Source: Gammaproteobacteria bacterium (lineage in GTDB: Bacteria > Pseudomonadota > Gammaproteobacteria > RBG-16-57-12). From it: a DNA stretch of 64,000 nucleotides. The stretch spans positions 64,184 to 128,183 of the forward strand of contig JAKIVC010000002.1 of the NCBI GenBank assembly GCA_021647245.1, given 5' to 3'. Positions 4,280 to 43,164 of the stretch are shown piece after piece. The notes under the pieces are model-generated. The model saw only the letters and a program-made list of their open reading frames with translations, was not told where the DNA came from and did no database searches. Every line of letters starts with the position of its first letter. Within the stretch, counting starts at the first letter, position 1. The translations under genes and the position numbers were made by a program.

Positions 4280-5569
4280 ATGACATTTCAACAGCATGTG
4301 AGCGTACCGCACTTGACAACCGCCCTCACAGGACCTCTGCAACACATTGAGAGCCACCTGCTTGGGCATCAAGTCGAAATTGAGACGTGGTTCCGCAGTC
4401 AGTGGCTAAAGACCCCTGCCCCTTTTTATACCTCGGTTGATCTGCGTAATGCGGGTTTCAAGCTGGCGCCGGTCGATACCAACCTCTTCCCGGCAGGCTT
4501 TAATAACCTCAATAGTGCTTTCATGCCGCTCTGTATCCATGCAGTACAATCGGCCGTGGAGCGGATTTGCCCCACTGGGCGGCGAGTTTTATTGGTGCCC
4601 GAAAATCATACCCGTAACCTCTTCTACCTGGAGAGTCTGGCAACACTGGTGCAAATTATTACTGCGGCGGGTTTTGAAGTGCGCATTGGCTCACTGCTGG
4701 CAACACTGGATGAGCCCATGTGTGTGGAGCTGCCCTCGGGGCGAAGTGTGACGCTGGAACGCCTGATTCGCCATAACTCCCGCGTTGGTGTGGCCGGTTT
4801 TGACCCCTGTGCGGTGCTATTAAATAATGACCTCTCCGAGGGGTACCCTGAAATATTAGTGGGTATAGAGCAGTCTATTATTCCACCGCTGGCATTGGGC
4901 TGGTCAAATCGACTGAAATCGGGTCACTTTGCACACTATCGTGATGTTGCCGAAGAGCTCTCCGACTTGGTTGAAATCGACTCCTGGCTGATCTCTCCCT
5001 TGTTTCGCAACTGTGGTGAGGTCAGCTTTAAAAAGCGTGAAGGTGAAGATTGTTTACTGAAAAATGCGACCGCGCTATTTACCGCGATAAAGCTTAAATA
5101 TGAAGAGTATGGTTTAACCGATAAACCTTTTATTGTCGCCAAAGCAGATGCGGGCACCTACGGAATGGGAATAATGACCGTGGAGAGTCCAGAGGAGCTG
5201 GTTGAGCTTAATCGCAAGCAGCGCAATAAAATGGCTTCCGCCAAAGGGGGGCAAGAGGTGAGCCAGGTTATTTTGCAGGAGGGTGTTTATACCTTCGAGA
5301 CGTGGGGTGATGCGGTCGCAGAGCCGGTAGTTTATATGTTGGATCACTTTGTGGTTGGCGGGTTTTACCGGGTGCATAAAGGACGAGGTGTAAAAGAGAA
5401 TCTGAATGCACCAGGAATGCACTTTGAGCCGCTGGCTTTTGCAGAGTCTTGCAGCACCCCTGATCGCAGCGAGGCGCCGGATGCGGGTATTAACCGCTTT
5501 TACGCCTATGGCGTGATTGCTCGCTTGGCGATGCTGGCGGCAGCTCGTGAAATTCATCAACACAGTTAG
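4280..5569 (+). CDS. Putative glutamate--cysteine ligase of the rare proteobacterial (T. ferrooxidans-type) family.
   Basis: 429-aa ORF ending 10 bp before gshB on the same strand. It has no similarity to the E. coli GshA layout. The call rests on the conserved gshA-gshB pairing and on size, with no motif-level confirmation, so treat it as tentative. Confidence 0.45.
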   Translation: MTFQQHVSVPHLTTALTGPLQHIESHLLGHQVEIETWFRSQWLKTPAPFYTSVDLRNAGFKLAPVDTNLFPAGFNNLNSAFMPLCIHAVQSAVERICPTGRRVLLVPENHTRNLFYLESLATLVQIITAAGFEVRIGSLLATLDEPMCVELPSGRSVTLERLIRHNSRVGVAGFDPCAVLLNNDLSEGYPEILVGIEQSIIPPLALGWSNRLKSGHFAHYRDVAEELSDLVEIDSWLISPLFRNCGEVSFKKREGEDCLLKNATALFTAIKLKYEEYGLTDKPFIVAKADAGTYGMGIMTVESPEELVELNRKQRNKMASAKGGQEVSQVILQEGVYTFETWGDAVAEPVVYMLDHFVVGGFYRVHKGRGVKENLNAPGMHFEPLAFAESCSTPDRSEAPDAGINRFYAYGVIARLAMLAAAREIHQHS

Positions 5570-5578
5570 GGTCAGGTT

Positions 5579-6535
5579 ATGGGGATAAAGCTCGGCATTG
5601 TAATGGATCCGATTGACGCTATCACAACCTACAAAGATAGCAGTTTTGCGATGTTGCTGGAGGCGCAAAAGCGAGGTTATCAGCTCTACTACATGGAGAT
5701 GAAAGACCTCTCTCTACGTGATGGCAAGGCGTTCGGTCGTCTCTCCCCTCTGACGGTAGATGACAACCAGGAAGCATGGTTTACCTTAGGTGATGCGGTT
5801 GAGCAGCCACTGACAGAACTTGATGTTATTTTGATGCGTAAAGACCCCCCTTTTGATACAGAGTATATCTATGCCACCTACTTGCTCGAACGCGCTGAAG
5901 TGGAGGGTGTGCTGGTTGTCAACAAGCCACAGAGTCTGCGTGATGCCAATGAAAAGCTTTATACCGCATGGTTTAATCAGTGTACGCCCCCGACACTGGT
6001 GAGCCGCCGAGATGATCAATTGCGCGCTTTTTTGGTGGAGCAGGGTGATATTATTCTTAAGCCATTAGACGGGATGGGCGGAGCTTCGGTATTTCGGCTA
6101 CGTCAGCAGGATGCCAATATTGGTGTGACTATTGAAGTGCTGACCCAGCATGGCCAGCGCTATATCATGGCGCAACGTTTTATTCCGGAGATCACCTCAG
6201 GAGATAAGCGCATCTTGATGGTGGATGGCGAACCGATACCCTACGCACTGGCGCGCTTACCCGCTAAGGGCGAGGTGCGGGCCAACCTGGCGGTGGGTGG
6301 CCGGGGGGTGGGTGTCGAGTTAAGTGAAAGAGACCACTGGATCTGCCAACAGGTGGGGCCGGCGTTGCGAGAGAAAGGGTTGCTATTTGTGGGGCTGGAT
6401 GTGATTGGTGACTACCTGACAGAGATCAATGTGACCAGCCCTACCTGTATTCGCGAGCTAGATAATCAATACGGGATCAATATCAGCGGCAAACTGATGG
6501 ATGCCATTGAGCAGCGTCTGGCGGCGCGCACCTGA
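5579..6535 (+). CDS. gshB: Glutathione synthetase.
   Basis: 318 aa. N-terminal MGIKLGIVMDPIDAITTYKDSSFAMLLEAQKRGY and an ATP-grasp C-terminal half. Position matches Pseudomonas gshB next to the pil cluster. Confidence 0.9.
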   Translation: MGIKLGIVMDPIDAITTYKDSSFAMLLEAQKRGYQLYYMEMKDLSLRDGKAFGRLSPLTVDDNQEAWFTLGDAVEQPLTELDVILMRKDPPFDTEYIYATYLLERAEVEGVLVVNKPQSLRDANEKLYTAWFNQCTPPTLVSRRDDQLRAFLVEQGDIILKPLDGMGGASVFRLRQQDANIGVTIEVLTQHGQRYIMAQRFIPEITSGDKRILMVDGEPIPYALARLPAKGEVRANLAVGGRGVGVELSERDHWICQQVGPALREKGLLFVGLDVIGDYLTEINVTSPTCIRELDNQYGINISGKLMDAIEQRLAART

Positions 6536-22998: not shown

Positions 22999-24663
22999 AT
23001 GGCTATTCATAATAAGCGTAATATTTTATGGTCGGCACTGCTGCTGAGTGGTGCTGTGGCATTGAGTGGCTGTAATAGCTCATCAGATGATAATACCGTT
23101 GAGGGTGCAGCAATCGAGGGCTCTATTTTTGCCGCCCCGGTGAGTGCTGCTTCGATATCTGTGTTTGACCTGAATGGTAATCGGGTGGCAGGTCCGGTGA
23201 CGAGTGGGGCAGATGGGCATTATCAAATCACAATTCCTGATGCACACCTTGCCAGTGACCTTAGCTTTATCAGCAGTGGCGGCACGTTTACAGATGAGGC
23301 GACGGGTGAGGCTAATGTCAGCGCAGGTCAAATGTCTGTTTATGTCGCGGCAGATAGCCTTGCGGCGGGTAGTGAAGTACACGCGACACCCTCTTCTACG
23401 ATTATGCACCAGTTGATTATGCAACATGGTCAAGGCTATGTAGAGGCGCAGGCGGCTTTTGAGAGTGCCTTTGGTTATCAGCCTGATTATACTGTGGCAC
23501 CAACGGATGCGACCGCACCGGCGGCCGATGCGACCGACCAGCAAATGTTGGCGGGACTGCGTGCCGCCAGTTTCAGCCAATTAGCCCAGGATTTGGGGAT
23601 GAGCGCCACTGATCAGTTTGCCTTGCTGGAGGCGTTGGCACTGGATTTGTCAGATGGTGAGCTTGACGGGCAGAGTACATCGGGTGCGGTTATTCTCCCG
23701 GCACCTGTCAACATACCATTGCAATTGCATATTCAGCATCAGTTTGCGATGGCACTGGAGGGGTTTCATCGGGGGGGGCGCAATGCAACCAGTTTAAATG
23801 CCAGTCAAATAGGCGTATTGCCCTTTGCTAAAGTGGCCAGCAGTGAAAGTTACCGCTTCGAATATCAGCCGGGCATGATGCCGGCAATGGAGGGGAAAAC
23901 CACATTCAAAATTGTGGTTACAGATGCGGCCACTGGGCAGCTGGCGCAGGGCGGATTGAACTTAATACTACAGGCAAAAATGTATATGGCGACAAAAATG
24001 CATGCCACACCAGTGGATGGTTGTAGTGAATCGGCAACAGCAGGTGTTTATGATTGTACTATTTTCTACCTGATGCCTTCGGTTATGAACGGTATGTCGA
24101 TGGGCTATTGGGAGTTGATGGTTACCACTGATAATAATGAAATGGTCAGCTTTTACCCGGGTGTTGGTATGGGCATGAACGGCAATGGTAAGCGCAGTTT
24201 GATGGCTCAATCAACGGGCACTGTGGTGGATGATGCCGGTTTGACTGTTCCTACCTACAGCGATTTTGTTATGAGTCCCACCTCGGCACGGAAGTACCTC
24301 CTGTTTAAAGACAGTATTGCAGCAGGCTCCATTTCAGGCCACAAAGTGCGCCTGTTTATTGCGGTAAAAGAGAGTATGGACTCATTTCCAGCGCTCTACA
24401 CAGGTGCTAGTTTTAATATGGCTAGTTTTACTGTCAGCTCAATTAACGCAGAATTTTCAGTGGATGGCGCTAGCTGGTCACCTATGACAGAAGAGGGCGC
24501 GGGTTATTGGTCTGTTGATAACGCACCGGGTTTAGTCGATGGTGTTGAAAACACGTTCTATATGCGCCTGCATGTCAATGGTGAACAGAAAACAGCCAAT
24601 GGTAGTGTGCCGGCACTGGATGGTAGTAACGATTACGCAATTTTTACAACTACCCTGAATTAA
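22999..24663 (+). CDS. Large lipoprotein with an N-terminal carboxypeptidase-regulatory-like beta-sandwich and a Met-rich C-terminal half. Function unknown; possible Cu(I)-binding.
   Basis: Signal peptide plus lipobox ALSGC. GSIFAAPVSAASISVFDLNGNRVAGPVTSGADGHYQITIP. Met clusters GMMPAMEG, KMYMATKMH, LMPSVMNGMSMGYWELM, GVGMGMNGNG. Confidence 0.5.
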   Translation: MAIHNKRNILWSALLLSGAVALSGCNSSSDDNTVEGAAIEGSIFAAPVSAASISVFDLNGNRVAGPVTSGADGHYQITIPDAHLASDLSFISSGGTFTDEATGEANVSAGQMSVYVAADSLAAGSEVHATPSSTIMHQLIMQHGQGYVEAQAAFESAFGYQPDYTVAPTDATAPAADATDQQMLAGLRAASFSQLAQDLGMSATDQFALLEALALDLSDGELDGQSTSGAVILPAPVNIPLQLHIQHQFAMALEGFHRGGRNATSLNASQIGVLPFAKVASSESYRFEYQPGMMPAMEGKTTFKIVVTDAATGQLAQGGLNLILQAKMYMATKMHATPVDGCSESATAGVYDCTIFYLMPSVMNGMSMGYWELMVTTDNNEMVSFYPGVGMGMNGNGKRSLMAQSTGTVVDDAGLTVPTYSDFVMSPTSARKYLLFKDSIAAGSISGHKVRLFIAVKESMDSFPALYTGASFNMASFTVSSINAEFSVDGASWSPMTEEGAGYWSVDNAPGLVDGVENTFYMRLHVNGEQKTANGSVPALDGSNDYAIFTTTLN

Positions 24664-33875: not shown

Positions 33876-34967
33876 GTGAATGAGATGTTCCGATATTTAG
33901 TAGTGGCTGCGCTGTTTCCTATGTTGTCCGGCTGTGGTGGAGATACCCCGGCATCATCCAGTGAACCAGAGCGTGTTGAAAAAATAGTCGCTCGAGAGAG
34001 TAACCGTAGCTGCCTTGCTCCGGCGGATGCTATCGATACCGCGACCCGGCTCTCCACCACAGGCTGTTTTACAGATGTTAGCAACCAGATAATGGCGGGT
34101 GGGGTGATCCCCTACACCGTCAATAGCGTGTTGTGGTCCGATGGTGAGAGCAAAGGGCGTTATTTTGCAGTGCCGGATGGCACGACCATCAGCTTAACGG
34201 TGGACGAATCTTCAATTGTTGCCAGTAATGGCACTAAAAATGGTGATTTCAACTTTCCGGTAGGCGCGGTGGTGATCAAACACTTCTATAGTGGCAGCCG
34301 TATCGTTGAGACCCGCTTGCTGATGAACCATGCCAATGATGGTTGGGGTGGCTACGCCTATCAGTGGGATGAGTCACAGAGTGACGGTACCCTGCTGGTT
34401 GGCTCAAATAGCATCACCACACCGGTCAGCCACTATTTCCCGAGCCGCGAAGAGTGTATGGAGTGCCATACGGATGCCGCTCGGGTGTTATTAGGGCCGG
34501 ATACTCTACAACTCAATTACCCCCTTTACTATACGGATGGCACAGAAGAGAACTATCTCGATGCTTTGGTTCGATTAAATTACCTCTCGGCACCGTTGCT
34601 GGCGGATTATAAGGTGGATCGGCTCTATGCAATTGACGATAGCGACGCACCATTAGAGCAGCGAGCCAGAAGCTATTTGCACAGTAACTGCTCGGGCTGT
34701 CACCGCACTGGCGCACCGCAAGGTGGCTTTGATCTTCGTTACACCTCATCGTTTGTAAACAATGTTTGTGGTATCGCTGCAGCAGAGCCGACCAGCCCCA
34801 CCGGAGGGTTGCTGATCGACCCCGGCAATGCTGATAACGCCACTATTCAGCAGCGACTCGCCTCTATGGGGAGCATTCAAATGCCACCTATCGGGCGAGA
34901 GCAAACCGACCCCGAAGCGGTTCAAGTGATGGCTGATTGGATCAATAGCCTGCAGGGCTGTGATTAA
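33876..34967 (+). CDS. Putative dihaem c-type cytochrome lipoprotein.
   Basis: Lipobox MLSGC. Two CxxCH motifs (CMECH and CSGCH), the second followed by GAPQGGFDLRY and MPPIG. Confidence 0.5.
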   Translation: MNEMFRYLVVAALFPMLSGCGGDTPASSSEPERVEKIVARESNRSCLAPADAIDTATRLSTTGCFTDVSNQIMAGGVIPYTVNSVLWSDGESKGRYFAVPDGTTISLTVDESSIVASNGTKNGDFNFPVGAVVIKHFYSGSRIVETRLLMNHANDGWGGYAYQWDESQSDGTLLVGSNSITTPVSHYFPSREECMECHTDAARVLLGPDTLQLNYPLYYTDGTEENYLDALVRLNYLSAPLLADYKVDRLYAIDDSDAPLEQRARSYLHSNCSGCHRTGAPQGGFDLRYTSSFVNNVCGIAAAEPTSPTGGLLIDPGNADNATIQQRLASMGSIQMPPIGREQTDPEAVQVMADWINSLQGCD

Positions 34968-37612
34968 CCCAGCAACTTTTTTAACTCCGGCACACATGAG
35001 CCACAATTTGTGCCGGCATTCAGATAGCTACCAATCTCTTCCACACTTTTCAAGCCATGTTTTTGGATCGCCTCTCGAATACTGTTTTCACCTACCTTGA
35101 AACAGGCGCAGACCACACGCCCGGTATCAACCTGGCCGACCGGTGGCTTTCCAGTGAGCAGTGCACGGCGCTCATCATTATCCAGCACCTCTTTTTCAAA
35201 AAGTGAGGCGAGCCAACTGCGGGGTGGCAGCGCTTTGTCCGGGGCGATGAAAATACAGCTCTCCACTTGATCTCCTGTCATACGAATACCTCGATAGGTG
35301 TTTGCGCCGTTATCCAGCAGTTCGACCCAGTTGACATCATTATTTGAGGTGCAAAGATAACTTCTCGCCCATGCGGGGAGATCTTTGGAGCGTTGCTCAC
35401 CCGCCACTTCGTATCGATAGTGGTTATTGCCGGTTGCCCTTGCCCAGTAACAGACCCCTTCCAGTTTTAATGCGCGGCGCGAAAGGATAAAGCCGTGCCA
35501 TGCGGTTTGGTAAGGCTTAAGCTGCACCGGCGTATGTTTAAACTCAGGTTGGCCCGAAAGCGGGTCTACCGCAGGATTGACCACTGCGGAGGCTTTTCCC
35601 CTGCTGGAAAACTGCTCGCTCCAGTGCATCGGCGCAAACAATTCACCACGGCGCTGGCCGTTGTCCAAGCGTACTCGCCCGATCATCTCACCCCAGCGGC
35701 TGGTCACCGTGGCTAACGCATCCTCATTGATAGAGAGCGCCACGGCATCATCAGGATGAATGGCGATGTAGGGTTCGGGGCTATGCTCAGATAGCCGTGG
35801 CGCCTTTCCAGTGCGGGTCATGGTGTGCCACTGGTCGCGTACCCGCCCAGTATTCAGAATAAAGGGAAAGCTGTCACAGGGCATGTGTGCGGGTAGCCGT
35901 GGCTCAATGGCTTGAAACTGTGCCTTGCCTGATGGCGTGAAAAAATGGCCATCACTAAACATGCGAGCACTCCCCGCAGGCTGCTGTTGATTCACTGGCC
36001 ACTGGATGGGTGATAGCTGGTGGTAACTCTGTTGAGTTTGACTGCTCAGTGCCGAAAGGTCGAAGTCACGCTCTCCGTTGTTTCTATATCCGGAAAGAGC
36101 CGCGTGTTCGTTAAATATTTCGTAAGGGTGTTGATAATTAAAACCATCGCTATACCCCATACGCTTGGCCACCTCAGAGATTATCCACCAATCGGGTTTT
36201 GCTTCACCGGCAGCCGCCTGAAAAGCTCTCTGGCGTGAGATACGTCGTTCAGAATTGGTAACGGTGCCGCTCTTCTCCCCCCAGCCTTGGGCCGGTAATA
36301 AAATATTGGCACGGAGGGTGGTGTCGGTCTGCTTAACGCAATCGGAGACCACTACAAACTCGCACTGTTTGATCGCTTCTGCAACGTGGTCTGCATTGGG
36401 CATGCTGGCTGCGGGGTTGGTGGCCATGATCCATACAGCCTTGATCTTTCCCTTGGCAATATCATCAAACATATCTACCGCCTTGCGGCCGCTTTGTTTA
36501 GGAATGGCGGGTGAGCCCCAGAAGCTTTGTACTAAAGTACGGTGCGCGGGGTTTTTTATCTCCATATGAGCGGCCAACATATTGGCCAACCCGCCTACTT
36601 CGCGCCCTCCCATGGCGTTTGGTTGGCCAGTAAAAGAGAAGGGGCCCATGCCGGGGCGACCGATACGCCCGGTGGCCAGATGGCAGTTGATAATGGCATT
36701 GACCTTATCCGAACCACTGGTTGATTGATTAATGCCCTGAGAGTAGACAGTGACCACCCGCTCTGTGCGGGAGAAGAGTCGATAAAACGCTTGAACCACA
36801 GACACTTCGAGGCCACAGCGTAGTGCCACGGAGTCGACGCTAGGCGCGGTTTTTTCTGCCATGCGGAGTGCGGTCTCAAACCCCTCGGTATAAGCATTCA
36901 AATAACTGTGGTTTATTTCACCATCCCGCTGCAGATAACTTAGCAAGCCATTAAACAGTACGGTATCGGTACCAGAACGCAGGGGCAGGTGGAGGTCGGC
37001 AATGTCACAGCTGGGGGTCTCTCTGGGGTCGATTACTACCACCATCAGATCGGGGTTGACCCGCTTTGCCTGGTTGATTCGCTGAAACAGTACCGGATGA
37101 CACCAGGCTGCATTGGTGCCGGCCAGTACAATCAGCTTTGCTCGTTCCAGATCTTCATAACAGCAGGGCACGGTGTCTGACCCAAAAGCGCGTTTATGGC
37201 CTGTGACAGAAGAGGACATGCAGAGCCGCGAGTTGGTATCAATATTGGCTGTGCCGATATAACCTTTGATCAGCTTATTGGCGACATAGTAATCTTCAGT
37301 CAAGAGTTGCCCCGACACATAAAAAGCGACCGCGTCAGGGCCGTGCTGCTCAACGGTTGCTAAAAACCTCTCCGCGACCTCCCCAAGCGCCTGATCCCAG
37401 CTGGCGGGTATTCCCTCAATTTCGGGCTGGAGCAGCCGCCCCTCCAGTCCCAAGGTTTCGCCCAACGCCGACCCTTTGGAGCAGAGCTTGCCAAAATTAG
37501 CGGGGTGCAGCGGGTCACCTTGGACTGTGTAGCCGCCATCAGCATTCGCTGCTACCAGCACTCCGCAGCCAACACCACAATAGGGGCAGGTTGTTTTTGT
37601 CATCTTGGACAT
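34964..37612 (-). CDS. nasA: Assimilatory nitrate reductase catalytic subunit (molybdopterin oxidoreductase with a C-terminal BFD-like 2Fe-2S domain).
   Basis: N-terminal 4Fe-4S Cys motif TTCPYCGVGCGV. Mo-bisMGD domains. C-terminal CACFKV...CGSC. Confidence 0.85.
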   Translation of the reverse strand: MSKMTKTTCPYCGVGCGVLVAANADGGYTVQGDPLHPANFGKLCSKGSALGETLGLEGRLLQPEIEGIPASWDQALGEVAERFLATVEQHGPDAVAFYVSGQLLTEDYYVANKLIKGYIGTANIDTNSRLCMSSSVTGHKRAFGSDTVPCCYEDLERAKLIVLAGTNAAWCHPVLFQRINQAKRVNPDLMVVVIDPRETPSCDIADLHLPLRSGTDTVLFNGLLSYLQRDGEINHSYLNAYTEGFETALRMAEKTAPSVDSVALRCGLEVSVVQAFYRLFSRTERVVTVYSQGINQSTSGSDKVNAIINCHLATGRIGRPGMGPFSFTGQPNAMGGREVGGLANMLAAHMEIKNPAHRTLVQSFWGSPAIPKQSGRKAVDMFDDIAKGKIKAVWIMATNPAASMPNADHVAEAIKQCEFVVVSDCVKQTDTTLRANILLPAQGWGEKSGTVTNSERRISRQRAFQAAAGEAKPDWWIISEVAKRMGYSDGFNYQHPYEIFNEHAALSGYRNNGERDFDLSALSSQTQQSYHQLSPIQWPVNQQQPAGSARMFSDGHFFTPSGKAQFQAIEPRLPAHMPCDSFPFILNTGRVRDQWHTMTRTGKAPRLSEHSPEPYIAIHPDDAVALSINEDALATVTSRWGEMIGRVRLDNGQRRGELFAPMHWSEQFSSRGKASAVVNPAVDPLSGQPEFKHTPVQLKPYQTAWHGFILSRRALKLEGVCYWARATGNNHYRYEVAGEQRSKDLPAWARSYLCTSNNDVNWVELLDNGANTYRGIRMTGDQVESCIFIAPDKALPPRSWLASLFEKEVLDNDERRALLTGKPPVGQVDTGRVVCACFKVGENSIREAIQKHGLKSVEEIGSYLNAGTNCGSCVPELKKLLG

Positions 37613-38080: not shown

Positions 38081-38162
38081 ATAAAGTGTTATTTTTTTAG
38101 TGTATTTATGTTTAACTGCACAAGGTAAGAGACAAAACTATTTTCTTTATAGGAGAGAACAC

Positions 38163-38519
38163 GTGAGTTCATTATTTGATCGTTTGGGTGGTAATGCGGC
38201 TGTAGATGCAGCGGTAGATATTTTTTACGCTAAGGTATTGGCAGATGATCGTATCAACCAGTTTTTTACAACGGTTGATATGGAGACACAAGCGGCCAAG
38301 CAAAAAGCCTTTTTAACCATGGCTTTTGGTGGTCCGAATAGCTATACCGGGCTGGATATGCGTGAAGGGCATAAACATATGAACCTGAACGAAGGTCATT
38401 TTACTGCGGTGGTTGAAAATCTGGCCGCTACACTGAAAGAACTGGGTGTTTCTGATGCCGATATTGCCGAAGTTGCTGAAGTTGCCAATAGCGTAAAGGA
38501 TGATGTGCTAAACCGTTAA
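38163..38519 (+). CDS. glbN: Truncated haemoglobin, group I (trHbN-like).
   Basis: GTG start preceded by AGGAGA. VSSLFDRLGG...DIFYAKV (B10 Tyr)...REGHKHMNL (proximal His). The ORF-track start at 38100 is an over-extension. Confidence 0.8.
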   Translation: MSSLFDRLGGNAAVDAAVDIFYAKVLADDRINQFFTTVDMETQAAKQKAFLTMAFGGPNSYTGLDMREGHKHMNLNEGHFTAVVENLAATLKELGVSDADIAEVAEVANSVKDDVLNR

Positions 38520-38682: not shown

Positions 38683-39231
38683 GTGTCAAAATTACTCAAA
38701 ATATTTGAGAAGCTCGCGGGCGAGCGGCGGGGCCGAGTGCGTCACGTTGAGATTCTGATCGCAACGGTGGCGGCGTTAACTGCACTTTTGATGGTGGGGT
38801 GGATTAGTCGCTCGGTTGCGGGTGATCAGGCTGGCCTCTATTTAATGGCCTCAATGGGCGCATCAGCGGTATTGATTTTTGCTGTGCCTGCTACTCAAAT
38901 GGCAAGGCCGTGGGCCTTCTGTTGCGGGCACTTTGTCTCTGCCTTTGTGGGTGTGAGTTGTAGTTTGTTGATAGGGGATCTGGTTTTAGCGGCGGCACTC
39001 GCGGTCTCGATCTCTATCTTTTTGATGAGCTACCTGCGTTGCCTGCATCCGCCGGGTGGCGCTGCGGCAATGATTCCTATTGTTAGTGGCGAGTCAGTTA
39101 CTGCAATGGGCTACAGTTTTCTACTTATCCCTGTTGGCATTAATGTATTGGTGATGCTGCTGTTTTCACTGGCTTACTTTCGCTGGATGGCACAGCGGGA
39201 GAAGCGGTTTATGGCGCAGCGATCCAAGTAG
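38683..39231 (+). CDS. HPP-family membrane protein (the family includes plastid and cyanobacterial nitrite transporters).
   Basis: 4 to 5 TM segments. Signature CLHPPGGAAAMIPIV. Confidence 0.7.
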   Translation: MSKLLKIFEKLAGERRGRVRHVEILIATVAALTALLMVGWISRSVAGDQAGLYLMASMGASAVLIFAVPATQMARPWAFCCGHFVSAFVGVSCSLLIGDLVLAAALAVSISIFLMSYLRCLHPPGGAAAMIPIVSGESVTAMGYSFLLIPVGINVLVMLLFSLAYFRWMAQREKRFMAQRSK

Positions 39232-39241
39232 CGGCTCTTAG

Positions 39242-40189
39242 CTACTCCGCCAGTTGCAGTATAAACATCTCGACTACAAGCAAGGTACTTAAGAAGGTGG
39301 AAAATAGACTGATGTAGAGTGTTTTGTATTGGTTGTCATACTCTTTTTCGAGGGTATTGCTGAGTTGTTTCATGAGTGAGTTGAGCTGCTTGAAGCTAAG
39401 GCCGATGGCATCACTGGCAATAGCAAAATAGTGATCAGGTTTGATCATAATTTTTTTTGCGCTCAGGAATTCCCTGTCTAGAGTGCTCAAAAACAGCGCA
39501 ATACTTTTCTGGCATTGGGTGAAATCCAACATGTTTTTATCGATTTTTTGATGCCTTAAAATGGTAATTGTCTCATCACATACCAGTGAGGCCTTTTGAT
39601 GAAGATAGCCCAACTTACTCCGGCTTTGTGTATTTAGACGGGCTTGAGTTGCGGCTCCAGTGCCAATTCCCCTTGCCTGACCCAGCACTTCGGTAACAAA
39701 GGGGAGTATGTTGATACCGATCTCCAGCAGTCCATGCAGCTGCTTGTCATCACTGTTGTCCAGCTTGCTCAGGCTGCCGGTATCACTAATTAGATTAAGT
39801 AGTTTTGAGATAATGGCGGTGTGCAGGGAGAAGCTCTCCTCAGCACTGAGTGATGAGAAGTTTTCAGTTACTTTATGCCAGCCCTTCTTAACCTCAAGAT
39901 AACCGGGTGAGCTTGAAAATTCAGGGTAATCGTTACTTATTTTCTGTAGCTGCCGGCCTATTTTTTTTTGGTGCGCATAGCACTTCTCCTTGAAAGCTGA
40001 GTTGCCTTTCAGTAGCGCATTGCTCATGCCGCGATGCTGGGGAATGCTCTCTAGTAACTGGAAAAGCTGGCGGATAACCAATAATCCTGCCTGCCGCCGA
40101 GCTGAAAAACGCCGTTGAACCACCACAGAGCGTAACCACGCCACTGAGATAAAAAATAAAATGAGAGAGACCAGAGTAAGCGTCAGCAT
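39242..40189 (-). CDS. Stand-alone TM-periplasmic sensor-TM protein. The periplasmic domain is NIT-like (nitrate/nitrite sensing) or of the PilJ type.
   Basis: N-terminal TM, then about 270 helical residues with [16 protein letters not shown] and [13 protein letters not shown], then a C-terminal TM and no output domain. Its start overlaps the MCP stop (ATGcTGA). Confidence 0.5.
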
Positions 40190-41340
40190 GGTGACTTCTC
40201 TTGTGAACGGGATAACTTGACCAGATAGCCGGCTGTTTCGGATGCCTCTTGGATCACTTCGGTGGTCTGTTGAGCCATCTGATTTATTTTTTCGATATTG
40301 ATGGAGATTTCGCTACTGCTGCTATTCTGCTGGTGAATTGCCAGGCTGATATTTTCCATTGCCGCAACGGTGGATTTCGCCCCTTGTTTAATTGACTGAA
40401 GGGCGTTGTGGGTCGAATCAGAGAGCCCAACACTGTTATTGATGGCGTTGATGATCTGCTCCATACCGTTGCTGACATTCTGCACATCTTGTTGAATAGC
40501 GGATATTTGTTGATTAACTTTGGAGGCCGCCTGCTGGGAGCGTTGCGCCAACTGCCTTACTTCATCAGAAACCACAGAGAAGCCACGGCCATGTTCACCT
40601 GCACGAGCTGCTTCGATGGCTGCATTCAGTGCCAGCAGGTTAGTCTGGTTTGCTATATCATTGATGGTGTCGATGATTGAGCTGATCTCTTGCGAGCGTG
40701 ATAGCAGGCCGTTGATCTGTTCGGTTGATTGATTAATTGAATGAGAGGCCGTCTGGATTTCGGTCGCCATGGTTTTAACAATGTCATCACCTTCAGTCGC
40801 ATAGGTGTCCAACATTTTTGAGGTGCTGTCGGCTTCGTCAGCAAGCCCCGAGATGGTATCGATATTACCGCTTAACTGCTCCATCTCATTTAAAATGCTA
40901 GCCACCGAAGTCTGTTGAATGGTCATCATTTCAGTCGAGTGCCCATTCATTTTTGCTAAATCAAGTGCCGCACTGTGTAGCTCTTCGCTGGCGCTTTTAC
41001 TCTTTTCGTCCAAGCGTTCAACCGCAACCCGCTGCTGATGAAATGCGCTGAATATGGGGTTAAACTCATTCTCTTTATAGCAAGCGGTCTCCCCCTTTGT
41101 CAGGCGGCGTATAGTGTGTAGCTGATAGTGGTGATAAGCAAAAATCAGGTAGAGGGTGATGCTCAGCGTTATGATGACAAGGAGTGTCAGGTCAAATTGC
41201 AGTGCGGGTTCAAGCGTCGGGATAAGATAGAGCAGCGCAGAGGCTAAGGGCAGTACGGTAAGTGATACGATAAAAATCAGTTTTTGGCGTAGTGAGAGTC
41301 GTTCAAAAAGAGCGGTGACGGGTTTGAATAATTGATCCAT
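40183..41340 (-). CDS. Methyl-accepting chemotaxis protein lacking a periplasmic ligand-binding domain.
   Basis: Two TMs separated by about 10 residues, then the MCP signalling domain ([35 protein letters not shown]). Confidence 0.8.
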
Positions 41341-41491
41341 TCTGCTATTCCTCGTTTTCCTCGTCTATCAGGTAGCCCAGAATAACATTATGATGCGGGT
41401 TTCGAGTTACTCCGTACTACTACCTATAAGGGGTTTGGAACAAGTGAGGGTAATTCCCCTAATCCCTAGGTAGCAACACGTATGCAGGCCC

Positions 41492-41566
41492 TTGATTCCA
41501 CAGCAAAGCAAAAAATCGTCACCGAACCTACGGGTGCTACTCCTATTTTTTATTTCACTGTGAAAC
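41492..41566 (+). repeat. Composite element: TTGATTCCACAG ... CACCGAACCTACGGGTGC ... TTTCACTGTGAAAC.
   Basis: Architecture parallels 50591-50662. Confidence 0.5.
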
Positions 41567-41751
41567 CGATATCTTACATATCATTACGTATTTTTATCTG
41601 GAGTTTATGCTGAGCCTAAACCTACCCAAACTTGTTTAAAATCTCCTTAACGGATAGCGTTCTATGCTTGCAGATCTTTAACATTTTTTTCATGAATGGT
41701 CTTGGGCTGGCCGGCTGGTTTTTGGTGGTTGGCCCCCAAAAATCACTCTGG

Positions 41752-43164
41752 CTACCCCTCTACAAGTTCGCGGGCATACTCTTTTAATGTATCCAGTATG
41801 GCTTTTTCGCTGTCACCGTATTCAGGGGTGGCGCGCAGTTCATTTAGCTCAGCCAGATAGCTGGCTAGATCAAGGCGACTCAGGCGGAATGTTTGCCAGC
41901 GTGCCTGCTCCTCTTCGGTCAAGGTGTCGAGGTAGTTGCGAGCACGCATGCGAAACAGCATTTCGGGCAGGCGGCTATCATCAAAAGGTGGCTCATAGCC
42001 TACCAGCTCTTGCGGGGTCATGGTATGGATCTGTGCCATGCGGGACTTATCGTCCGGGCTAAAAAAACCGCCCCCATAGAGCATCTGGTCGGGGTCGGTT
42101 CGTTTTTCGAACTGGCTCTCCGAGAGCACCTGCTGCACTTTCTTGGCGAGTCCTTTTGCCTCTTGCAGAACGGCCAGGTTTTGGCGGCAGAGGTTAAGGT
42201 CGATGCCATACTTTTTGGCCGCCTTGCCATCGAGGGACATAAATGGGGCAATCACCGGGCATTTGTTTATATGTACCGTTTTTAGTGGGATGCGCTCAAC
42301 CCCCTCGGGTAACTCATCACTGCGAGTAAAGAGGCGCTGGTGGATCTTCTTCGCACTGAGGTTGATTAAATCAGCCGGGTCAACGCTTAGATCGTACACC
42401 ACCACGCCATTTTTGTTGGTGGGGTGCTCGGCAATCGGCACCACTATGGCCATATTTCCTTTCTCTACCGGGTACATGCCCGAAACATGAATTACCGGCT
42501 TCTGCTCACGTAAATCAAGCAGCTTGCTCAATTTGCGCTTGTTACGGTTGTTGTATACGTATTCGAACAGCTTGGGCTGTTTCTCTTTAATGAGCTTGGC
42601 CATGGCGATGGTGGCGTAGACATCAGAGAGCGCATCGTGAGCCGATTCATGTGCGATACCATTTGCTGCGGTAAGGTCTTCTAGTCGGACCGAGGGCCGG
42701 CCCTCTTCGGTGGTGGGCCACTCAATGCCTTCAGGGCGCAATGCGCGGGTCATGCGTACCACATCTAAAAGGTCCCAGCGGCTACAGCCATTTTGCCACT
42801 CCCGTGCGTAGGGGTCCATTAGGTTGCGGTAGAGCGTATAACGGGTAAACTCATCATCAAAGCGCAGGTTGTTATAACCCAGCACGCAGGTATTAGGCTC
42901 GCTAAACTGCTCATTGATCAGGCGGATAAACTCAACCTCAGGCAACCCGGCTTCAAGTGCCATGGGTGGTGTGATACCAGTGATTAAGCAGGAGCTGGGG
43001 CTGGGGAAAAAATCATTGGCAGGCTTACAATAGATCATTAATGGATCGCCAATAATATTGAGATCCTCATCGGTACGCACCCCGCCAAATTGTGCAAGGC
43101 GGTCATTCATTGGGCTGAGGCCAAAGGATTCGTAGTCGTACCAATAGAATGTTTTTTTGCTCAT
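41752..43164 (-). CDS. sbcB: Exodeoxyribonuclease I.
   Basis: MSKKTFYWYDYESFG DnaQ-like exonuclease N-terminus. 471 aa from the ATG at 43164. The ORF-track start at 43326 is an over-extension. Confidence 0.85.
   Translation of the reverse strand: MSKKTFYWYDYESFGLSPMNDRLAQFGGVRTDEDLNIIGDPLMIYCKPANDFFPSPSSCLITGITPPMALEAGLPEVEFIRLINEQFSEPNTCVLGYNNLRFDDEFTRYTLYRNLMDPYAREWQNGCSRWDLLDVVRMTRALRPEGIEWPTTEEGRPSVRLEDLTAANGIAHESAHDALSDVYATIAMAKLIKEKQPKLFEYVYNNRNKRKLSKLLDLREQKPVIHVSGMYPVEKGNMAIVVPIAEHPTNKNGVVVYDLSVDPADLINLSAKKIHQRLFTRSDELPEGVERIPLKTVHINKCPVIAPFMSLDGKAAKKYGIDLNLCRQNLAVLQEAKGLAKKVQQVLSESQFEKRTDPDQMLYGGGFFSPDDKSRMAQIHTMTPQELVGYEPPFDDSRLPEMLFRMRARNYLDTLTEEEQARWQTFRLSRLDLASYLAELNELRATPEYGDSEKAILDTLKEYARELVEG

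Follow-up and report, generated by a model that had tools for sequence, protein, structure and literature searches.

Two adjacent minus-strand genes in a 64,000-nucleotide stretch of the gammaproteobacterial contig JAKIVC010000002.1 (the window, whose own numbering is used for all positions unless another locus is named) appear, on balance, to encode a bipartite chemoreceptor resembling CetA/CetB. The first gene specifies a methyl-accepting chemotaxis protein (MCP) of 385 residues with a transmembrane (TM) hairpin and no ligand-binding domain, and the second a stand-alone NIT-domain protein of 315 residues. In the arrangement favoured here, the NIT domain would be tethered in the cytoplasm and report internal nitrate, nitrite or a related anion to the MCP. 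The original prediction, made from the same sequence, had also proposed a two-polypeptide receptor; the conserved arrangement of an MCP gene followed by a NIT gene upholds that part, whereas a free periplasmic sensor docking onto the transducer from outside is disfavoured.

Both open reading frames (ORFs) are intact in the ORF listing of the window, and the earlier description of two minus-strand ORFs joined by an ATGcTGA sequence was borne out by the listing and the sequence. The ATG of the NIT gene (40187-40189) lies over the TGA of the MCP gene (40183-40185), giving a 7-nucleotide overlap at which translation is putatively coupled; an overlapping or tight junction of this kind would yield co-expression of the two proteins. 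The listing places each ORF start at the first start after a stop, and the 315-residue ORF has no earlier in-frame start; the N-terminus MLTLTL... is therefore fixed. A promoter and terminator scan of positions 38900-41900 returned no promoter-like site, and terminator-like sites on the plus strand only; neither kind of site was seen on the minus strand between the two genes, and the scan is uninformative on co-transcription. Against Rfam, at gathering thresholds, the full window gave zero matches, and thus no known RNA element is involved.

The layout proposed for the downstream protein, a TM helix, a helical domain and a second TM helix with no output module, was confirmed by the sequence and by an AlphaFold model. 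The model is all-helical, with eight long helices (predicted local distance difference test score, pLDDT, 90.5; predicted template-modelling score, pTM, 0.83), and hydrophobic stretches lie at both ends of the protein: residues 2-19 run into helix 1, and residues ~291-312 close the last helix. The presence of a NIT domain (for the family, see Shu, Ulrich and Zhulin 2003) is supported by relatives, by the family profile and by the fold. In Pfam, 19 of 21 family members matched NIT (PF08376) at E<=0.01 (best 8.9e-9), and most homologues carry a precomputed PF08376 match. A family profile search retrieved 5227 proteins out of 1.84 billion representatives, the long proteins among which are NIT-HAMP-MCP, NIT-kinase or NIT-GGDEF/EAL proteins. 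A Foldseek search with the AlphaFold model gave NasR (4AKK) as the sole significant PDB match (E=1.2e-4, probability 1.00, query template-modelling score, TMq, 0.63); it was reached by fold search only, as the family profile found nothing among PDB sequences at E<=1. No PAS domain was matched by Pfam in the 315-residue protein or in the family members. The earlier NIT assignment thus holds through the relatives and the NasR fold match, but the window protein itself scores below threshold (18.5 bits against a gathering cut-off of 24.9, E=0.0027), over residues 111-201 only.

The Q-x-RG-type motifs quoted in the original prediction are real features of the family: they correspond to the invariant or nearly invariant alignment columns Q51-H52-R53-G54 and G170-Q-A-R173-G-x-G176. 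In NasR, the proposed nitrate pocket includes arginines on helices 1, 5 and 6 (PMC7496416), and the QHRG and GQARGxG positions of the window protein may be equivalent to these pocket residues.

The 385-residue protein is an MCP by its signalling domain (PF00015, residues 190-355, E=3.7e-42, 144.5 bits against a gathering cut-off of 34.6). As had been proposed, its two TM helices are only about 10 residues apart in sequence and hydropathy, leaving no room for a ligand-binding domain; the corresponding loops of partner MCPs at other loci are mostly 5-20 residues long. A Lys/Arg-rich stretch ahead of TM1 (K6, R14, R18, K20) resembles canonical NIT-MCP N-termini. Pfam found no HAMP domain in the 385-residue protein; a shortened HAMP-like segment follows TM2 instead, at the place where the partner MCPs of the betaproteobacterial group and of the L024 type keep the canonical HAMP motif GDx..R...DE...L...FN. 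NCBIfam alignments, with no net indel relative to CtpM and +28 residues relative to E. coli Tap, suggest that the protein belongs to the 40-heptad class. The N-terminal 135 residues gave zero matches in a collection of 5.8 billion proteins, and the partner-MCP family is described here from fetched genome loci. At the other end, the gammaproteobacterial partner MCPs have a common C-terminal motif, (T/S)A-x-Y-L-x-x-L-(S/A), seen in the window (40183-40320) and at loci L001, L010-L016, L021, L029 and L034, in place of which canonical NIT-MCPs end in ...V-x-x-F-(K/R)-(I/V). The motif could mark a docking surface for the NIT partner that is particular to this clade.

The arrangement recurs well beyond the window. 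An MCP gene lay immediately upstream in 3/3 initial homologues at 28-67% identity, and a genome scan with one genome per species yielded 53 loci, which were classed by ORF and phmmer analysis. The split class comprises ~30 non-redundant species-level loci (identity 25-85%), in each of which an MCP gene of ~385-400 codons is followed on the same strand by a stand-alone NIT gene of 273-331 codons. Canonical NIT-MCPs of ~680 residues or longer make up the fused class, with 17 loci, and a third class consists of a few NIT-kinases. At 30 other loci the MCP and NIT genes overlap by 1, 4 or 7 nucleotides in 11 cases and are separated by 0-30 nucleotides in 15. Carriers of the split pair were found in Chromatiales, Woeseiaceae, Ectothiorhodospiraceae, Ca. 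Tenderia, Methylocaldum, Methyloversatilis, Gallionella, Sulfuricella, Sterolibacterium and unclassified Gamma- and Betaproteobacteria, and are mostly sulfur-, iron- and methane-oxidising Proteobacteria of redox gradients. With ~80 clusters at 50% identity among its top matches, the family is fairly widespread.

This survey disposes of an artefactual origin, as does the gene order, which had been argued earlier to be inexplicable by a frameshift: a frameshift in a NIT-MCP gene cannot produce an MCP gene followed by a NIT gene. That the window derives from a metagenome-assembled genome (MAG), and that the NIT gene is broken at the related locus L014, could be taken to indicate that a canonical NIT-MCP gene has been misassembled, frameshifted or rearranged into a pseudogene. 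The chance of this is negligible, given that both ORFs are intact, that the same arrangement is present in ~30 independent assemblies down to 25% identity, including the complete isolate genome of Methylocaldum sp. GT1BB (L028), and that the N-terminal charge pattern described below is a derived trait of the whole family. At L014 itself (4908-5876, a Woeseiaceae MAG) the NIT gene is present as two ORFs (4908-5174 and 5199-5876) downstream of an intact partner MCP gene, either as a pseudogene or through a sequencing error. The L028 record, NZ_CP194902.1, is titled 'plasmid unnamed' but spans 5.3 Mb, and is probably a mislabelled chromosome.

In neighbour-joining trees, the stand-alone NIT domains formed one clade apart from every fused NIT domain, and the signalling domains of the partner MCPs likewise formed one clade. 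The NIT and MCP trees are congruent, with pairwise distances correlated at r=0.97 over 28 pairs, a value that shows co-inheritance and does not prove interaction. On these trees the pair has a single origin and has been co-inherited.

The proposed link to N-oxide metabolism genes was borne out as a recurrence: 10 divergent split loci have a gene for an HPP-family membrane protein and/or a truncated globin beside the pair, against zero of the canonical fused NIT-MCP loci. This recurrence, together with the window HPP and NIT genes ending 10 nucleotides apart, leaves room for a NIT protein that is not an input to the MCP and instead serves the N-oxide genes, for example as a gate or regulator of the HPP channel or of the globin, or that is a ligand-less scaffold or modulator of the MCP. 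Such a role is improbable, since the MCP gene is the sole invariable neighbour: at ~20 split loci, including all betaproteobacterial ones, it is present with no HPP or globin gene within 5 kb, and its order, strand and tight junction with the NIT gene are conserved. The absence of an output domain from the NIT protein, and the fact that some NIT domains have no known ligand, would suit a non-input role; conversely, NIT and MCP co-diverge, the putative ligand-site motifs QHRG and GQARGxG are invariant, arguing for a binding function, and independent MCP-NIT fusions exist.

The side of the membrane on which the NIT domain lies was addressed by comparing charges in 80 stand-alone proteins of <=335 residues with those in 72 multidomain NIT receptors. 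The latter have cytoplasmic HAMP, MCP or kinase domains that dictate their topology, and they were the internal positive control for the positive-inside rule. Lys and Arg are entirely missing ahead of TM1 in 78 of the 80 stand-alone proteins (of the other two, one has a single Lys and the other is a truncated canonical fragment), and the 15 residues after TM1 hold on average 4.19 Lys/Arg and 0.74 Asp/Glu. Conversely, the multidomain receptors average 3.03 Lys/Arg before TM1, followed by 2.17 Lys/Arg and 3.0 Asp/Glu. The proteins from the genome loci gave the same picture. Canonical NIT receptors carry a Lys/Arg-rich N-terminus of ~20 residues (...RPA..L..RL.Y..KF...) ahead of TM1, which is followed by a net acidic flank; this N-terminus is absent from the window NIT protein, which has zero Lys/Arg ahead of TM1 and five Arg within 15 residues after it. 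By the positive-inside rule, the reversed bias predicts an N-out/C-in orientation and would therefore place the NIT domain in the cytoplasm. TM2 is absent in 30 of the 80 stand-alone homologues, which have acidic N-termini, and the betaproteobacterial members begin with M-x-x-Y-E-W, a TM helix and RRSRQE and end in a soluble tail; this single-TM pattern is hard to reconcile with export of the domain. The sequence of TM1 is poorly conserved in the alignment of the stand-alone family, which would fit an anchor better than a specific signalling interface. A membrane-tethered, cytoplasmic NIT domain is accordingly rated as likely, and the periplasmic location given in the original prediction was not borne out, considering the reversed charge at TM1, the homologues lacking TM2 and the naturally occurring cytoplasmic NIT fusions described below. 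A cleavable signal peptide on the NIT protein was considered and rejected, as the positive n-region is absent. The Lys/Arg-rich flank before TM2 was dropped as support for a cytoplasmic NIT domain, since canonical receptors have the same flank.

The periplasmic model (N-terminus in, TM1, NIT outside, TM2, C-terminus in), with docking on the MCP through TM-TM packing or the 10-residue loop and external nitrate or nitrite as the cue, is considered unlikely. In canonical MCPs and kinases the NIT modules homologous to the stand-alone proteins are periplasmic, and both TM helices are kept in the same positions in the window lineage, but the five Arg straight after the signal-anchor should block export of a domain of 270 residues, and TM2 is missing elsewhere in the family. 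The partner MCP retains the canonical NIT-MCP N-terminal motif and TM1, as if the sensor had been excised; yet the MCPs of the L024 type already own a periplasmic NIT domain, and the extra NIT domain of two natural fusions is in the cytoplasm. Signalling through TM-TM contacts alone is known from sensory rhodopsin and Htr. In the present proteins this model would leave merely 0-6 cytoplasmic residues for signalling, the TM1 sequence is poorly conserved, and the charges flanking TM1 are reversed relative to canonical receptors.

Relatives with two NIT domains bear on both topology and origin. P0024 (950 residues; L062 4001-6853, on a 414-kb contig) and P0049 (918 residues; L061 4001-6757, on a 66-kb contig) are both arranged as NIT-TM-HAMP-MCPsignal-NIT. 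As the second NIT domain comes straight after the signalling domain, without an intervening TM helix, it must be cytoplasmic. Within each protein this C-terminal copy is 58-60% identical to the periplasmic one, from which it follows that the duplication happened independently in each. The cytoplasmic hairpin of an MCP has the C-terminus close to its membrane-proximal end, and a NIT domain fused there may occupy the same region as a tethered one, next to HAMP. In Methylocaldum and Methyloversatilis (L024 2860-5882, L028 2858-5882 and L033 2702-5882), a periplasmic NIT-MCP of 674 residues is followed after 23-25 nucleotides by a stand-alone TM-NIT-TM protein; at L028 this is seen in the complete isolate genome. 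The signalling domain of these NIT-MCPs falls in the partner clade and the stand-alone NIT domain in the split clade, and the loci may represent an intermediate state with two NIT sensors per receptor. They fit the addition of an internal sensor rather than the excision of an external one. A receptor with its own outside NIT domain gains little from a second one outside, and these loci thus count in favour of a cytoplasmic NIT domain.

A tentative scenario for the origin of the pair, held with less than even confidence, is that the TM1-NIT-TM2 cassette was duplicated downstream of its own receptor gene and inverted topologically, the window lineage keeping the internal sensor only. Inversion would have involved loss of the N-terminal positive charges and gain of the Arg/Lys cluster after TM1, with the same fold now reading the cytoplasm. 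In lineages with both copies (L024, L028 and L033; P0024 and P0049) the receptor could compare external with internal nitrate or nitrite, and in the window lineage an 'internal nitrate status' taxis receptor would stand beside a nitrate reductase, an HPP channel and an NO-detoxifying globin.

In terms of mechanism, the 385-residue hairpin MCP, which has next to no periplasmic portion, would act as the transducer and couple to CheA and CheW. The NIT domain, composed of two four-helix bundles, would be held at the inner face of the membrane by its N-terminal TM helix in the N-out/C-in orientation, the C-terminal TM helix providing a second anchor in the window lineage, and would hang in the cytoplasm alongside the transducer's membrane-proximal region. 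On binding a small anion, for which nitrate or nitrite imported into or formed within the cell is the most plausible candidate, the NIT domain would change, and this change would pass laterally to the HAMP-like/adaptation region or the TM hairpin and bias kinase control. The lateral relay would be comparable to that in Aer, where PAS acts on HAMP, and to CetB acting on CetA (PMC2628428; PMC12442639). Intracellular nitrate or nitrite is the most plausible cue because of the domain family and its invariant Arg motifs, the HPP or globin genes beside 10 split loci, and NasA both here and at L008. The cue named in the original prediction, nitrate, nitrite or NO, is a guess. The NIT domain of the chemoreceptor PA4520 binds neither nitrate nor nitrite (PMC6381276), however, and this ligand assignment is therefore about as likely to be right as wrong.

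Besides PA4520, several observations weigh against the reading set out above. The window NIT protein is below the Pfam gathering cut-off, and the sequence profile does not reach NasR, so that equivalence to the NasR ligand site is tentative. The topology call is derived from the positive-inside rule; canonical receptors have precisely this TM1-NIT-TM2 layout in their periplasmic module, and the Lys/Arg flank before TM2 is similar in both classes (3.6 vs 3.0) and hence non-discriminating. The C-terminal NIT domains of P0024 and P0049, as independent duplications, fall outside the stand-alone clade. The trees were built by neighbour joining without bootstrap support, and a high mirror-tree correlation is expected for any adjacent, vertically inherited genes. 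Finally, all carriers of the hairpin-type MCP that were found are MAGs.

The closest functional precedent is CetA/CetB, the energy-taxis receptor of Campylobacter jejuni, in which a hairpin MCP and a separate cytoplasmic sensor are co-transcribed, transducer gene first, with a 17-bp gap (PMC2628428); a second such complex, CetB2/CetA2, is described from Magnetospirillum gryphiswaldense (PMC12442639). The window pair shares with CetA/CetB two adjacent co-directional genes and a hairpin MCP with essentially no periplasmic domain, and CetB is held at the membrane on the cytoplasmic side, as is predicted for the NIT protein. Conversely, CetA has a HAMP region, which in the window MCP is shortened and not recognised by Pfam, and CetB is a peripheral PAS protein binding flavin adenine dinucleotide (FAD), whereas the sensor here is an integral protein with a NIT domain of ~270 residues. 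The cue of CetA/CetB is redox state and that expected for the window pair is an anion. The pair thus works like CetAB, on the present reading, but is not a member of the CetAB family, as its sensor is NIT and not PAS. Aer, the E. coli aerotaxis receptor, likewise combines a TM hairpin anchor and a minimal periplasmic loop with a cytoplasmic sensor signalling sideways to HAMP, but it is a single polypeptide with a PAS-FAD sensor N-terminal to the hairpin.

Canonical NIT receptors (PF08376; PA4520, PacN) share with the window pair the domain family, the QHRG and GQARG motifs, the TM1-NIT-TM2 cassette and the MCP N-terminal motif. In those receptors the NIT domain is in the periplasm and on the same chain, whereas in the window it is on its own polypeptide, encoded downstream of the MCP; the window-type NIT proteins differ further in lacking the ~20-residue Lys/Arg-rich N-terminus, in the opposite charge bias around TM1 and in forming a separate clade. 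With two chains and a reversed charge bias, the pair is not a canonical NIT-MCP. Among NIT proteins only NasR, a NIT-ANTAR antiterminator, has a solved structure. It senses intracellular nitrate or nitrite through a cytoplasmic NIT domain and controls assimilation genes, but the protein is soluble, has an RNA-binding ANTAR output on the same chain and is too dissimilar in sequence for a profile match. A further two-polypeptide precedent is sensory rhodopsin/Htr of haloarchaea, where the transducer gene comes first, the receptor gene second, and the stop and start codons overlap. Htr has two TM helices, and both partners are integral membrane proteins. Unlike the window sensor, sensory rhodopsin is a 7-TM retinal protein, archaeal, and signals via TM-TM contacts.

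Full-text searches of the literature turned up neither a stand-alone NIT protein partnering an MCP nor a chemoreceptor with a cytoplasmic NIT domain, although mention in papers beyond these searches is possible. Nitrate taxis has so far been explained either by energy taxis, an indirect metabolic read-out, or by direct periplasmic binding, which is known for McpN (PMC6381276). If the arrangement favoured here is correct, the internal pool would be sensed directly, as a third route, and these bacteria may be guided by nitrate or nitrite inside the cell rather than outside it. The bipartite chemoreceptors known so far all have PAS sensors, and the pair would extend the principle to the NIT fold and to a membrane-anchored sensor. 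The natural series of canonical receptor, canonical receptor plus an extra NIT gene, hairpin MCP plus NIT gene, and NIT-MCP-NIT fusions makes domain relocation and topology inversion testable. In the redox-gradient habitat of the carriers, nitrate-guided movement is of ecological importance.

Positions of the gene pair, its sequence elements and the neighbouring N-oxide genes in the window
Feature	Position	Strand	Basis
NIT sensor gene, stand-alone TM-NIT-TM, 315 aa, no output domain	39242..40189	-	Pfam, AlphaFold, fold search
NIT-protein TM1, residues 2-19, no charge ahead	40133..40186	-	Sequence and family alignment
Arg cluster after TM1, residues 20-33, predicted cytoplasmic flank	40091..40132	-	Alignment and charge counts
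QHRG motif, residues 51-54, helix 1, invariant columns	40028..40039	-	Family alignment
GQARGIG motif, residues 170-176, helix 5, nearly invariant	39662..39682	-	Family alignment
NIT-protein TM2, ~residues 291-312, followed by only 3 residues (AE + stop)	39254..39319	-	Sequence and alignment
MCP stop/NIT start, ATGcTGA overlap, putative translational coupling	40183..40189	-	Sequence
Transducer gene, 385-aa MCP: N-terminal cytoplasmic motif, TM hairpin, short HAMP-like linker, signalling domain	40183..41340	-	Pfam and sequence
MCP TM1, residues 21-40	41221..41280	-	Sequence; comparison with fused NIT-MCP N-termini
MCP periplasmic loop, residues 41-50, no positive charge	41191..41220	-	Sequence
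MCP TM2, residues 51-69	41134..41190	-	Sequence and hydropathy
Shortened HAMP-like linker, residues 70-116	40993..41133	-	No Pfam HAMP match; position compared with partner MCPs
MCP signalling domain, residues 190-355	40276..40773	-	Pfam MCPsignal
HPP-family membrane protein gene, convergent with NIT gene	38683..39231	+	Pfam TM_HPP, E=2.5e-43
Truncated (bacterial-like) globin gene	38100..38519	+	Pfam Bac_globin, E=4.1e-19, residues 24-137
NasA-like assimilatory nitrate reductase gene: molybdopterin oxidoreductase with C-terminal BFD-like [2Fe-2S] domain	34964..37612	-	Pfam

The neighbours named in the original prediction, nasA, a truncated haemoglobin and an HPP gene, were confirmed by Pfam, the first as a NasA-like gene. 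HPP proteins are reported nitrite transporters, and a truncated globin together with a reductase can turn nitric oxide (NO) into nitrate. HPP recurs beside the split pair in other lineages, and NasA adjoins the pair at L008 too. Between the stops of the HPP gene (ends 39231, plus strand) and the NIT gene (ends 39242, minus strand) lie 10 nucleotides, in which the scan showed no terminator-like site (39229-39244). The true start of the globin gene is probably ~20 codons inside the listed ORF, relatives being 118-122 residues long. At L001, a ferredoxin-NADP reductase-like gene (979-1944; Fer2, FAD_binding_6, NAD_binding_1) follows the globin gene; alongside HPP and the MCP-NIT pair, these two genes suggest that a two-component NO-dioxygenase module is associated with the receptor.

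Elsewhere in the window, two plus-strand ORFs, 33876-34967 (363 residues) and 22999-24663 (554 residues), have no Pfam match at E<=1e-6; the end of the former lies 4 nucleotides inside the convergent nasA-like gene. A second chemoreceptor gene is located at 835-2868 on the minus strand. It encodes a PilJ-type MCP of 677 residues (PF13675 PilJ N-terminal domain and MCPsignal), which points to a chemosensory system for type IV pili in this genome.

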